Positions 28,049 to 33,668 of a DNA stretch of 33,953 nucleotides are shown piece after piece. The stretch's first letter is position 1, and each line of letters opens with the position of its first letter. The DNA comes from a virus (taxonomy: Duplodnaviria > Heunggongvirae > Uroviricota > Caudoviricetes). The position numbers were made by a program, and so were the translations under genes. Below the pieces are notes generated by a model that had not been told where the DNA came from, did not search any database, and saw only the letters and a program-made list of their open reading frames with translations. The stretch is taken from positions 1-33,953 of the IMG/VR virus record IMGVR_UViG_2534682338_000010; one strand, given 5' to 3'.

Positions 28049-28091
28049 GTAATTACCCTCATTACGAAATATGAAGGTATTTATTAAATTG

Positions 28092-28119
28092 TTGATATTT
28101 TGATAAATACGGGTATTAA
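28092..28119 (+). promoter_or_regulatory. sigma70-like promoter for the 28136 gene
   Basis: TTGATA (28092-28097), 16-nt spacer, TATTAA (28114-28119); AAGGGGG SD before the ATG. Confidence 0.45.
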
Positions 28120-28135: not shown

Positions 28136-28741
28136 ATGCTAATTAATCAGCAACAAAGAGATGAATTAAAATTAGCCTTTTCTTGTTGTACCGATCATGA
28201 ATATCGTTTGCCAGTAAAACATAAGCACTTAAAGACTGATTACACAACATCCGGGTTTAGCCGTGAGGAAGCGAAAGAGATTTTAATAGAATTTTACCGT
28301 GATAATGGTTATACAGACGTTCACAACTTCTTTAAGAAACATAGAACATCACATACAGAGTTTCGGAGAGTCCGAGATTGGTTTGATTTTGATATCAAGC
28401 GTTATTATCGCATTGATGACGGTCCTATCTATCGGTTGCAGTGGAAGCCGATCCGAGAAGTGTTGAAACAGACAAGGGATAGTATGGCTGTCACAATGCC
28501 ACGTAACATAGCTTTTAAGAAAGGATATGGTGATACAAGGGAACTATTCGTTGAACTCGCTAACGTGAAGTACAGCCACTATTACAACGATCCTAAGTCC
28601 TTCTTTGAAGTGCTTCGCAAGGTTGATATTAGTCGGGGTACATATTATTCACGGTTGAAGAAGTACGGGATTAAGGCAGAGTTCTTTATGTCGGTTGACG
28701 ATGGAGAACTTTTTCCGATAAAATGTAAGTCCTCTAAATAA
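28136..28741 (+). CDS. hypothetical protein with C-terminal small DNA-binding (HTH-like) domain
   Basis: 201 aa; C-terminal segment ISRGTYYSRLKKYGIKAEF resembles the two small paralogs at 28777 and 32146. Confidence 0.6.
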   Translation: MLINQQQRDELKLAFSCCTDHEYRLPVKHKHLKTDYTTSGFSREEAKEILIEFYRDNGYTDVHNFFKKHRTSHTEFRRVRDWFDFDIKRYYRIDDGPIYRLQWKPIREVLKQTRDSMAVTMPRNIAFKKGYGDTRELFVELANVKYSHYYNDPKSFFEVLRKVDISRGTYYSRLKKYGIKAEFFMSVDDGELFPIKCKSSK

Positions 28742-30452: not shown

Positions 30453-30481
30453 ATCATAAAAAAGTTTGAAGATATTGTCAA
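30453..30481 (-). promoter_or_regulatory. near-consensus sigma70 promoter (minus strand)
   Basis: minus-strand TTGACA (30481-30476), 17-nt spacer, TATGAT (30458-30453); a second TTGACA lies at 30444-30439. Confidence 0.55.
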
Positions 30482-30985: not shown

Positions 30986-31388
30986 AGTGGAAATCCTCTA
31001 AAAGAAAGTGAATCAAAGTAATTCTGATATTATTTATAAGAGAAAATTCTTGATGATTTTGGAAGGGATTGTTACTCACTTCGTTCGTTTACTAGAATCA
31101 GTTATCATCTGGTATTAAATCCCTTTCTAAGAAAATCCTTTCAAAAGTGATTCTCGATGCCACGCAGTGGCGTCGCAGACGTTTGGGAGTGAGCGAAGCG
31201 AGCGAGCAAACTAGTTAATTCCTTCTAAGATCATCTAGTTTAAATTAGTGTTACTAGAAGTAATTGGTTAGCGCTTCGCGCAGTCGGGCTACGCCCTCCT
31301 AATATCTTTTTGGTTATTTGTTGTTTTTGGTTTTACACATGAGCGTAGCGAATGTGTTATATAATATCTATGCACGCCCGATTCCCCG

Positions 31389-31630
31389 TTTTGCCCCTCA
31401 CTAAGTTAATGTTTTATAAAGAGTTTTTCTCACAAATCCTTTTCGGGGGCAAATTTCAGGGGCAAAAATTAGATTTTCAGGGGCAATTATTGGCATTTCA
31501 GGGGCAAAAATGAGGGGCAAAATCACTGTTTCCCAGAATTTCAGGGGCAAAAATAGTAGGTTTCAGGGGCAAAAATGGGATGTGGAATCTAGGGGATTTT
31601 GGTTCAGGGGCAAAATTCGGGGGCAATTTT
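31389..31630 (+). repeat. iteron-like array: 9 direct copies and 1 inverted copy of GGGGCAA(A/T)
   Basis: direct copies starting at 31445, 31459, 31480, 31501, 31514, 31544, 31566, 31607, 31619; inverted copy at 31389-31397; several have the extended form TTTCAGGGGCAAAAAT. Confidence 0.8.
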
Positions 31631-31667
31631 CATAGTGTAGGGCTAGTGTAGGTTTGAAAATCCTTTG

Positions 31668-31696
31668 TTGACACTGTGTAGGATCGGTGGTATACT
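31668..31696 (+). promoter_or_regulatory. near-consensus sigma70 promoter P1
   Basis: TTGACA (31668-31673), 17-nt spacer, TATACT (31691-31696). Confidence 0.55.
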
Positions 31697-31724
31697 TGAA
31701 AATTCGAGATAAATATTTTATAAT
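31696..31724 (+). promoter_or_regulatory. near-consensus sigma70 promoter P2 (tandem with P1)
   Basis: TTGAAA (31696-31701), 17-nt spacer, TATAAT (31719-31724). Confidence 0.55.
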
Positions 31725-32145
31725 ATTTGTATTGAAAGTGAAAATTTACCGATTTTCCTTCCTATTGTTATCACCGTGTTAAATTGTTATATGTCTGTGA
31801 AGATTTGGATCTGAGAGAAAATCTTGTAACAAATCTTTACAATTCATAGCTCAATTAATGCTCACCGCTTTAGCAAAAAGTGCTATGCCTTTTTCTAAAT
31901 TGATTGAATATACATCAATTTGGTTAAATCGTGTTCTTCGCTTTAGCAATTCGTGCTGTGGTTTAACACATTTAACACGTCTGATAACATCTGAATAACA
32001 TTTTAACATATCTCTGTTATAAATACATATATAAGAGATAAATGTGAGGGGTTGAAAAATAAAATACAATCCCCATATAAATAATAGTGAGCGGTTAACG
32101 CTCTTTTTTAAGAAATCATTAATCCACATTGTAGGAGGATTCGAG

Positions 32146-32328
32146 ATGGCACGACCTGTTAAGTTCACTCGCGAAATCATCTTAGAAATGGCTAAACGCT
32201 ACTTTGAGTTAACGCCGGGTGTGAGAATTGAAGAGTGGTTTAAAAATGAGGGCATCGATAAATCAACCTTTCATAAACTGCTAAAACGATATGACATTAA
32301 AGTGAAGATTGAAGCTACCGTTTGGTAA
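32146..32328 (+). CDS. small DNA-binding protein (paralog of the 28777 gene)
   Basis: 60 aa MARPVKFTREIILEMAKRYFELTPGV...; AGGAGGA SD 6 nt upstream. Confidence 0.65.
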   Translation: MARPVKFTREIILEMAKRYFELTPGVRIEEWFKNEGIDKSTFHKLLKRYDIKVKIEATVW

Positions 32329-32442
32329 TCAACTTTGACTGAGAATTATATGATGGCTTTAAAAAAGAAAAAGCCTCCCTTGTTGCAGCAAAGGAGGCTT
32401 GAAATGAACAATTAAAACTAACTTTCCACAGGAGTATTTATA

Positions 32443-33384
32443 ATGTTATTTTCCGCTAACTTTTTCACTAACGAAGTAACCAACGCTAAAGCAGTTATCA
32501 AATTTGGCACCGAAGCAAACAAGAAGATTCAGCCGAAAGTTGTTGCTCATGTTTCCTTTGCGCAGCAGAAATCCGCCTTCGCTGGCTTTAAAGCACATCG
32601 TGAAGCACTGATCGCGGCTGGCTTTGGTGTTGACGGTAAACTGCCTAACGGCATTCGTAAAGCAATCGACCGCGTTAAACCTGCTAAAGACGTTGCAGTA
32701 GACCACATCGTTACTTTTACCGTTAAGAACTCTTCTGAACTGTTCCACCTGGTTATTGCTGGTGATACTGCTATCGTTTCCGCTCCTAACATGGATTTTC
32801 AGGATACCGCTGATTGCCAGATCACCTTCGGTCGTCGTAAAGAAGTTACCGGAAAAGCTAAACTGAACTTCACTAAATCTGGCAATCCTTACTTTGCTGT
32901 TTTCTTTAACAGCCACGCTACCGAAAAAGAAGTTGTAGAACTGGTTGCTTATGAAGGTGAAGAGAAAGAACGTATTGAATCTTGCGAAGCATTTCTGGAA
33001 CTGGAAGCACAGGTGAATGCTGTTTCTCCGGTTGTTGAAGATCGCTTTGCTGCACTGGAAGCACAGATCGCAGAACTGAAAGCTGCACTGGAAGAAAAAG
33101 ACCAGATTATCGAAGCACAGAAAGCTGAGATTGAAGAACTGAAAGCTAAAGAAGTTGCTCCGGTAGCAGTAGTTGAAAACGCGGCTGATGAGGCCGCAAA
33201 TGATGAAGTAGAAGTGAAAATCGATGTGATGCGTGATCCGATGGCTGCACTGCAATTACTTCGTTCTTTTAAGGGCAAATCTCATTTTTCTAGTGATGTA
33301 GAAGATGAGGAAGAAGAACAGAAACGCAATGCTGCAATGCTTCATGATGAAATGTACGGTACTAACTTTTCTTACTGCCAATAA
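32443..33384 (+). CDS. abundant early-type protein with central coiled coil and acidic C-terminal region
   Basis: 313 aa; codon usage strongly skewed to high-expression codons (CTG, GAA, AAA, CGT, GGT); coiled-coil segment LEAQIAELKAALEEKDQIIEAQKAEIEELKAKE. Confidence 0.7.
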   Translation: MLFSANFFTNEVTNAKAVIKFGTEANKKIQPKVVAHVSFAQQKSAFAGFKAHREALIAAGFGVDGKLPNGIRKAIDRVKPAKDVAVDHIVTFTVKNSSELFHLVIAGDTAIVSAPNMDFQDTADCQITFGRRKEVTGKAKLNFTKSGNPYFAVFFNSHATEKEVVELVAYEGEEKERIESCEAFLELEAQVNAVSPVVEDRFAALEAQIAELKAALEEKDQIIEAQKAEIEELKAKEVAPVAVVENAADEAANDEVEVKIDVMRDPMAALQLLRSFKGKSHFSSDVEDEEEEQKRNAAMLHDEMYGTNFSYCQ

Positions 33385-33668
33385 AAAAAGGGACTCCGAA
33401 GAGTCCCTAGTAAGTTTAGGTTAGGTTTGCGCAACAAAGATGAGGTTATAATGAACATAATGCTACATTATTCTTTAAAGCCAGAAAAATAACCGCCCCC
33501 GAAGGGGCGGGAGGATTAATACTCAATCTATACTTGTTATGTTTTTATGTTGTATAGTCACTGACTATGAAAACACTGTACTGAATGTGTTTTATGGCTT
33601 TTAATCGGGAACTCTCTTTCGAAAGCCCCCTGTTAAAACCACATAAGGAGAAATGGCAGATTACAATA

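Follow-up and report, generated by a model that had tools for sequence, protein, structure and literature searches.

The subject of this analysis is the promoter and leader region that precedes two genes, here called p60 and p313, in the IMG/VR virus record IMGVR_UViG_2534682338_000010. The whole stretch analysed, positions 1 to 33,953 of that record, is referred to as the window; its 33,953 bases make up most of a ∼36-kb Escherichia coli prophage. The region of interest lies within a non-coding gap of 1.16 kb (30986–32145), which contains a nearly invariant GC-rich island, a DnaA box, a repeat array, a set of GTGTAGG boxes, two predicted promoters and the leader. The array (31391–31626, plus strand) comprises nine direct copies of GGGGCAA and one inverted copy, and lies directly upstream of the promoters; the window as a whole holds 14 copies of GGGGCAA, where 2.5 are expected. 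To the right of the gap follow p60 (32146–32328, plus strand), the first gene of the operon, which encodes a helix-turn-helix protein of 60 aa, and p313 (32443–33384, plus strand), whose 313-aa product consists of a variable N-terminal domain, a coiled coil (residues about 181–236) and an acidic tail.

Two promoter sequences, P1 and P2, are placed in tandem on the plus strand between 31668 and 31724 and point rightward, just as a preliminary description of this DNA had reported, directly downstream of the array, whose GGGGCAA repeats end at 31626. P1 (31668–31696) reads TTGACA-17-TATACT, with a TG before the −10 hexamer, and P2 (31696–31724) reads TTGAAA-17-TATAAT, such that the −10 of P1 abuts the −35 of P2. 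Each matches the consensus at 11 of 12 positions, and both have the hexamers close to TTGACA and TATAAT and the 16–18 bp spacing by which sigma-70 promoters are recognised; the transcription starts are predicted to lie near 31703 (P1) and 31731 (P2). Over both strands of the window, sites matching at 11/12 or better were found at three positions, these being P1, P2 and a minus-strand site at 30481. The last (TTGACA-17-TATGAT, 30453–30481, minus strand) points leftward and precedes the 110-aa and Rha-like genes.

AT-rich DNA tends to resemble promoters, and a looser scan, at 9/12, gave no enrichment (8 sites found against 9.3 expected), as would be anticipated if the region were simply AT-rich spacer DNA, without specific function, in which matches to promoters and terminators arise by chance. 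Such an account is, however, hard to reconcile with the tandem pair, as two sites of at least 11/12 did not arise in any of 2000 trials with a random model of the local 1.2 kb.

From the predicted starts to the ATG of p60, the leader measures ∼442 nt (P1) or ∼414 nt (P2), which agrees with the earlier placing of the first gene at 32146 after a leader of more than 400 nt; the ribosome-binding site of p60, AGGAGG (32133–32138), lies 7 nt upstream of the ATG. We treat as the structured non-coding leader RNA the segment from the P2 start to the end of a T-run near the gene (31731–32109, plus strand), a length of ∼377 nt from P2 or, with ∼28 nt more, ∼405 nt from P1. The leader had been called AT-rich, and its GC content, at 28–33%, is the lowest of the area. 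It had also been said to contain direct repeats at about 31866 and 31929: the repeats are real and the first position was right, whereas the second copy lies at 31939. The repeat, CGCTTTAGCAA, occupies 31866–31876 and 31939–31949, and the similarity extends to 29 nt with 76% identity (31859–31887 versus 31932–31960). Its 17-nt core is motif C, CTTTAGCAAnnnGTGCT, found twice on the plus strand (31868–31884 and 31941–31957) against 0.06 occurrences expected. The two copies flank a hairpin, AAATTGAT...ATCAATTT, at about 31895–31923.

The 3′ part of the leader carries three further hairpins, all on the plus strand. M_B (32009–32040) has the stem UAUCUCU/AGAGAUA and a conserved top, UAUAAAUAC (32018–32026). 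M_A (32042–32078) is formed by AUGUG.GGGGUUG, a 12-nt loop and then CAAUCCCCAUAU. The third is the terminator-like hairpin (32089–32109), already recognised in the preliminary description, in which GAGCG (32089–32093), the loop GTTAA and CGCTC (32099–32103) are followed by T6 (32104–32109). Its stem is of 5 bp, four of them G-C pairs, the loop is of 5 nt and the folding energy is −8.3 kcal/mol; a GC-rich hairpin with an immediate U-tract, the hallmark of an intrinsic terminator, is thus present on the transcribed strand. From the T-run to the p60 ATG there are 36 nt.

Relatives of the locus were gathered by searches with p313 and with the leader motifs, and in E. coli genomes, giving ∼40 distinct versions. 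Among these loci there are two leader architectures and three promoter contexts. In type 1, that of the window, the tandem P1/P2 pair lies at −478 and −450 from the ATG, motif C is present in two copies, M_A and M_B lie near the 3′ end of the leader, and the terminator-like hairpin, GAGCG-GTTAA-CGCTC with T6–8, is at −57. Type 2 (for example loci L009 and L016) has a single promoter, TTGACA-17-TATACT, at −372, with a dyad, TTGACAnnTGTCAA, over the −35. Motif C survives unaltered as a single copy in every type-2 leader; M_A, here at the 5′ end, comes right after the promoter and is followed by M_B; and the terminator-like hairpin at −54 is AG(A/G)GC-GAAAA-GCTCT with T5–6. Type-2 leaders have two more terminator-like hairpins within them, type-1 leaders none. 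In a further locus, L017, a type-1 leader is joined to a third, unrelated promoter context, again with TTGACA-17-TATACT. Common to all ∼40 loci are a near-consensus promoter, a leader of 335–440 nt without a conserved open reading frame (ORF), and a GC hairpin with a T-run 35–40 nt before the start codon.

The −10 of P1 is TATACT, TATAAT or TACACT in the type-1 relatives, and P2 takes the form TTGAC(A/G)-17/18-TGnTATAAT, a consensus promoter with an extended −10, in all but one of those with the tandem pair. A near-consensus promoter is therefore kept in three unrelated contexts (the type-1 tandem pair, the single type-2 promoter with its dyad, and L017), and this retention of near-perfect hexamers and spacing is the strongest available argument that P1 and P2 are working promoters. 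The dyad over the type-2 −35, which has a variable central dinucleotide, is present in all type-2 loci (L009 5335–5348) and resembles an operator at which a dimeric protein, perhaps p60, would bind. Two other promoter candidates were considered. M_A as a third promoter (TTGAAA-18-TATAAA or TATAGA) was rejected, its −10 being without the final T in both leader types. A possible weak internal promoter on the plus strand at 31963–31990, just upstream of the three-hairpin unit, reads TTAACA-16-TGaTAACAT (9/12, with an extended −10) and is invariant in sequence in type-1 relatives; its assignment as a promoter is speculative.

The leader does not appear to encode a protein. A plus-strand ORF of 46 aa (31858–31998) retains only 17 aa in 6 of 14 type-1 variants, and a minus-strand ORF of 109 aa is broken in 9 of the 14; both are absent from type 2, and no ORF on either strand of the leader is conserved. 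With the ORFs of both strands broken in relatives, a coding leader is ruled out. Nor does it belong to a catalogued RNA family: Rfam 15 gave no match at the gathering score in the window, L009, L016 or L017, and matches of chance level only when both leader types were compared at E values up to 10. The nucleotide diversity of the leader (0.006–0.076) is low when set against that of p60 (0.07–0.18).

As RNA, the leader is predicted to be unusually stable. Its minimum free energy (MFE) is −98 kcal/mol, compared with −66 ± 5 kcal/mol for dinucleotide shuffles (z −6.4), and the reverse strand gives z −4.1. Among 30 variants the plus strand folds more stably than the minus strand in 29, by ∼12 kcal/mol on average. 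The last 113 nt form three clean hairpins, M_B, M_A and the terminator (z −5.5), and for both leader types the MFE fold and the centroid fold contain the terminator hairpin. A long-range plus-strand helix, in which 31766–31789 pairs with 31964–31989, closes the 5′ domain of the leader; its pairs are invariant among 14 type-1 sequences, such that covariation speaks neither for nor against it. The conserved top of M_B rests on four different stems, all of them paired, the type-2 stem with G·U pairs. A leader less diverse than the neighbouring gene, a fold of this stability and the conservation of the elements in ∼40 distinct loci and three promoter contexts argue against a chance origin of the region, which we take to be extremely improbable and excluded for practical purposes.

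The one-sided changes seen in the stems are informative about the level at which the structure acts. They are mostly of the type A-U or G-C to G·U (the A-U to G·U change in the terminator stem occurs in 8 of 16 type-2 sequences), and as such changes leave the pairing intact only in the plus-strand RNA, they bear on the view that the region works as DNA. Under that view, it would serve a replication origin adjacent to the iterons as the AT-rich stretch where the DNA unwinds and host factors bind. The promoters would activate the origin by transcription or supply an RNA primer, and the hairpins would be incidental or serve as protein-binding dyads. The direct repeats, a perfect DnaA box (31331–31339) and the lowest local GC content would all fit an iteron origin; M_A is a dyad that is found also upstream of the L017 promoter, and the ORFs scanned include no other recognisable replication initiator. 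On the other hand, each G·U-creating change would be a C-A mismatch in the other strand or in a cruciform, and the plus strand is the better folder in almost every variant. The promoters point away from the repeats, the hairpin and T-run keep a fixed distance to the start codon despite varying flanks, and DnaA consensus sites are not enriched (3 found against 4.2 expected). Consensus sites for integration host factor (IHF) are not enriched either. Overall we consider a DNA-level role of this kind quite improbable.

The terminator-like hairpin is retained throughout. A GC-rich hairpin of 5–6 bp followed by at least five T is kept in 20 of 20 sequence variants of the site, with loops of GTTAA, GTTGA, GAAAA, GAAAT or AAAAA, and the sequence between the hairpin and the ribosome-binding site varies although the hairpin is kept. 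Between 32110 and the ATG no promoter-like site scores above 8/12, and the best of them would start transcription inside the ribosome-binding site. As there is no credible promoter after the hairpin, expression of p60 and p313 would need transcripts that read through it, and the hairpin is thereby an attenuator by position. Countertranscript control, by an antisense RNA gene in the leader, was also considered. The best minus-strand promoter-like sites in the leader score 8–10/12, the two leader types have none of them in common, and the minus strand of the leader showed no hairpin with a U-run; with no conserved minus-strand promoter or terminator, this possibility is not supported.

It had been proposed, with due hedging, that the region is an attenuator or a source of a small RNA, and the conserved promoters, the non-coding plus-strand fold, the invariable presence of the hairpin and the need for read-through lend support to that reading. 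The interpretation that we regard as probable is that the dose of p60 and p313 is set jointly by strong sigma-70 promoters, a non-coding, structured leader and an intrinsic terminator that leaks, with an abundant short RNA as by-product. In this scheme, P1 and P2 would act as strong sigma-70 promoters transcribing rightward, away from the array, and their transcript would be an untranslated leader of 380–440 nt that folds into a defined set of hairpins. The hairpin at 32089–32103 with its U6 would be a weak intrinsic terminator 36 nt before the p60 ATG, and only transcripts that pass it would yield p60 and p313. The attenuator would in this way restrict how much of the array-binding protein a very strong promoter supplies, possibly to an adjustable extent, the terminated product being an abundant short leader RNA of ∼380–405 nt. 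The elements themselves are present and conserved; they are non-coding and, in computation, fold as plus-strand RNA. Promoter activity, termination at the hairpin and dosage control we infer from sequence, folding and the comparison of close relatives.

Several observations weigh against this scheme. The terminator stem has only 5 bp and energies of −6.7 to −8.3 kcal/mol, and termination may be inefficient; the short stem suggests that the terminator would be leaky. Inspection of the folds revealed no competing antiterminator pairing, and no regulator was identified. AT-rich sequence forms hairpins easily, and the type-1 relatives, which are too close, have no pairs changed on both sides. In the 16 type-2 sequences, 98.8% of the pair cells are standard pairs, against 31–49% in slid controls, and four pairs have changed on both sides, which was reached by 7 of 500 shuffles, with a covariation score reached by 1 of 500; this support is modest, since the structure was predicted from the same alignment. 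Lastly, L017 carries a degenerate copy of M_A upstream of its promoter, which hints at a DNA-level role for this motif.

The identification of p313 as the probable array-binding protein follows from the comparison of array types. Three are found among the relatives, each with its own protein. The GGGGCAA array (type A) goes with a protein of 313 aa that starts MLFSANFF, the GTGTAGG array (type B; L017 4600–4800) with proteins of 328–341 aa that start MKNSKRI, and the CGGGGA array, with 11-nt spacing (type C; L070 4210–4470), with a protein of 337 aa that starts MKQNNFS. The type of array covaries perfectly with the N-terminal domain of the p313-like protein, the three domains being mutually unrelated, and the proteins of all types have a common coiled coil and acidic C-terminal part. 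This pairing of array and protein holds whatever the leader type, the p60 allele or the left-hand genes, all of which assort independently of it, and covariation across such flanks means that p313 most likely binds the array. Proteins of types B and C end in ...YAYAA and ...DFAA, respectively, which resemble the ssrA degradation tag.

Three roles are conceivable for the p313 protein, as replication initiator, immunity repressor or packaging-recognition protein, and for none of them is there another recognisable candidate among the ORFs scanned. The protein has no match in Pfam, PHROG, NCBIfam or PDB; a large protein search found near-identical E. coli hypothetical proteins only, and a single-sequence AlphaFold model was unusable (pLDDT 46). 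The p60 protein has a generic domain of the HTH_23/28 type, with a weak HTH_Tnp_1 match, and very few relatives. Three GTGTAGG boxes surround P1 on the plus strand (at 31635, 31646 and 31676, spanning 31635–31682), two just upstream of its −35 and one in its spacer. This heptamer is the repeat unit of the type-B relatives, though the array of the window is itself GGGGCAA, and the boxes may be an operator, a cross-regulation site or a recombination scar.

A conserved hairpin of 12 bp (32371–32400, −17 kcal/mol) lies between p60 and p313. It has an A-run before it and no U-run after it on the plus strand, and shows compensatory differences in L009 and L017. Together with hairpins at 33389–33408 and 33493–33510, it is oriented as a minus-strand terminator. 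Its role may be to stop antisense transcription, or it may help in the stabilisation or processing of the mRNA.

The spacer between the ribosome-binding site and the start of p313 (32434–32445, plus strand; GUAUUUAUAAUG) is complementary to the top of M_B, and this raises a different possibility, that the terminated leader, or its unit of M_B, M_A and terminator, is a regulatory RNA made from the promoter of its own target. The M_B loop (UAUAAAUAC) would pair with the p313 spacer (GUAUUUAUA) and limit translation of the array-binding protein, in a form of RNA-based immunity or copy-number control like that by the c4 RNA of phage P1 or the CI RNA of phage P4. The complementarity is 10/10 between the M_B top (32017–32026) and the p313 start region (32434–32443), and 12/13 between 31994–32006 and 32438–32450. 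Of 39 distinct loci, 36 have both the M_B top and the p313 start region, one of these by way of a wobble-compatible change; the co-occurrence spans both leader types and two protein types, and both sequences are replaced in the three type-C loci. In type 2 the hairpin unit directly follows the promoter and is succeeded by a better terminator-like hairpin (−10.1 kcal/mol, with U5). The well-defined fold of the last 113 nt is typical of small RNAs, and no recognisable CI-type repressor is found among the ORFs scanned.

Set against this, the energy of the duplex between M_B and the p313 start is no better than with shuffled AU-rich targets (z +0.9 to −2.3), and nearly palindromic, AU-rich 9-mers match easily. 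The type-C leader has no complementarity to its own start region, so that a compensatory change is not seen there, and the co-occurrence may stem from a single recombination event. The pairing is accordingly a lead, not a result, and we regard a regulatory RNA of this kind as a doubtful possibility. The fuller proposal, in which the leader RNA of its own operon controls p313 and the unit released by termination pairs through the M_B loop for immunity or copy control, is in our estimate distinctly unlikely. If the leader does exert RNA control, it may be comparable to the P4 CI and P1 c4 systems while unrelated to them in sequence, its hairpin modules having been reordered by recombination.

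The nearest known counterparts of the region are found in plasmids and phages. The leaders of plasmid rep genes, repC of pT181 and repR of pIP501/pAMbeta1 (with CopR), are attenuated by countertranscripts. They resemble the present leader in being long and untranslated and in preceding the gene of a protein that binds DNA repeats (here the candidate p313), and in pT181 and pIP501 the terminator hairpin likewise lies immediately before the ribosome-binding site. A gene for a small DNA-binding protein in the same unit, as p60 is here, has parallels in CopR of pIP501 and CopB of R1, and tandem promoters are found in the copB-copA-repA region of the IncFII plasmid R1. However, unlike pT181, pIP501 and R1, the prophage leader has no convincing antisense promoter or terminator; p313 matches no Rep family, and the element is carried by an integrated prophage and not by a plasmid. 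The prophage leader is also longer than the plasmid rep leaders, and is built of hairpin modules in a variant-dependent order.

The c4 RNA of phages P1 and P7 (immI) and the P4 CI RNA share with our proposal a non-coding leader transcribed from a promoter active in the prophage, short stretches of the leader complementary to the translation start of a downstream gene on the same transcript, direct repeats in the leader, and control of replication or of an antirepressor without a classical protein repressor. They differ in that the complementarity here is a single AU-rich 9–10-mer and is statistically insecure. No processing signal of the RNase P type and no fold like that of a tRNA were found in the prophage leader, which resembles these RNAs neither in sequence nor by Rfam, and whose direct repeats are not complementary to a separate internal element like seqB.

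In lambda pR′-tR′ (6S RNA) and the StxS RNA of Stx phages, a short non-coding RNA is transcribed from a strong promoter as far as an intrinsic terminator, downstream expression needs read-through, and the terminated RNA can itself function, all as envisaged here. In contrast to lambda, the downstream genes are not late genes, the prophage structural genes being on the other strand; no Q-like antiterminator was recognised, and the leader is twice as long and far more structured. The iteron replicons (P1 oriR/repA, pSC101 and R6K) combine, as this locus does, direct repeats, a promoter and a gene for a repeat-matching protein, in that order, with a DnaA box nearby. The repeats here covary with a putative DNA-binding protein, as expected of an iteron origin (three array types with three N-terminal types), whereas p313 matches none of the known initiator families (Rep_3, RepA-type winged helix, lambda O) and has no recognisable Rep fold. 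Further differences from the iteron replicons are that a ∼400-nt leader and an extra helix-turn-helix gene stand between the promoter and the gene of the candidate binding protein, and that the array repeats do not overlap the promoter.

The region is thus best read as a combination of promoter, leader RNA and attenuator that is a member of no named family, and it looks like a new RNA leader/attenuator before the gene of a probable array-recognising protein. It sits at the control point of a prophage family present in ∼1% of complete E. coli genomes, and its conserved leader of ∼400 nt, structured and ending in a terminator, makes a candidate for a cis-regulatory or small RNA new to Rfam. The covariation of array and p313 names the probable array-reading protein and so provides a handle on replication, packaging or maintenance of lysogeny. 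The two leader architectures, three promoter contexts and three array/protein types amount to natural swap experiments.

In strain ETEC1738 (NZ_CP122768) the prophage sits between the two halves of a split hicB gene, and a literature search on prophages inserted in hicB returned nothing relevant. Similar DNA is present in 63 of 5426 complete E. coli genomes (∼1%). No similar DNA was found in cultured phages or plasmids, in searches that covered near and distant matches of the region in phages, its near matches in plasmids, and the p313 protein in phages; the capsid has only distant relatives among cultured phages. A protein-pattern scan with one genome per species found no relatives outside the group, and motif scans of viral and metagenome contigs returned, besides chance matches, the same two leader types only. 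The family appears to be limited to E. coli and Shigella prophages.

The recognisable genes of the plus strand are a large serine recombinase and a UvsW-like helicase. The minus strand carries genes for lysis, tail, a protease–capsid fusion, portal and a gpA-type large terminase and, further along, the Rha-like gene and two unknown genes. The ORFs scanned include none that is recognisable as a CI-type repressor, replication initiator or small terminase. An exact IHF consensus, TATCAACAATTTA (28085–28097, minus strand), lies in the gap of 88 nt that immediately precedes the large terminase gene, and there is no recognisable small terminase gene next to it. Adjoining the large terminase gene is an ORF of 201 aa (28136–28741) with two p60-like helix-turn-helix repeats, which in some relatives is replaced by a 75-aa paralogue of p60 (∼31% identical; L015 8908–9135).

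The GC-rich island at the left of the gap (31150–31340) is almost invariant among the relatives (diversity 0–0.03) and is followed by the perfect DnaA box. It may belong to an origin or a cos site, and contains the hairpins GATGCCAC-gca-GTGGCGTC and GAGCGAAGCG paired with CGCTTCGC. At 31078–31089 most relatives have 220–320 bp more than the window. One relative, L016 (NZ_CP121356.1 2776280–2782345), is a remnant prophage in which everything to the left of the Rha-like gene has been deleted. RefSeq places a 69-aa ‘hypothetical protein’ inside its repeat array (L016 5752–5961), which is probably no real gene. The remnant still has an intact array, type-2 leader, p60 and p313.

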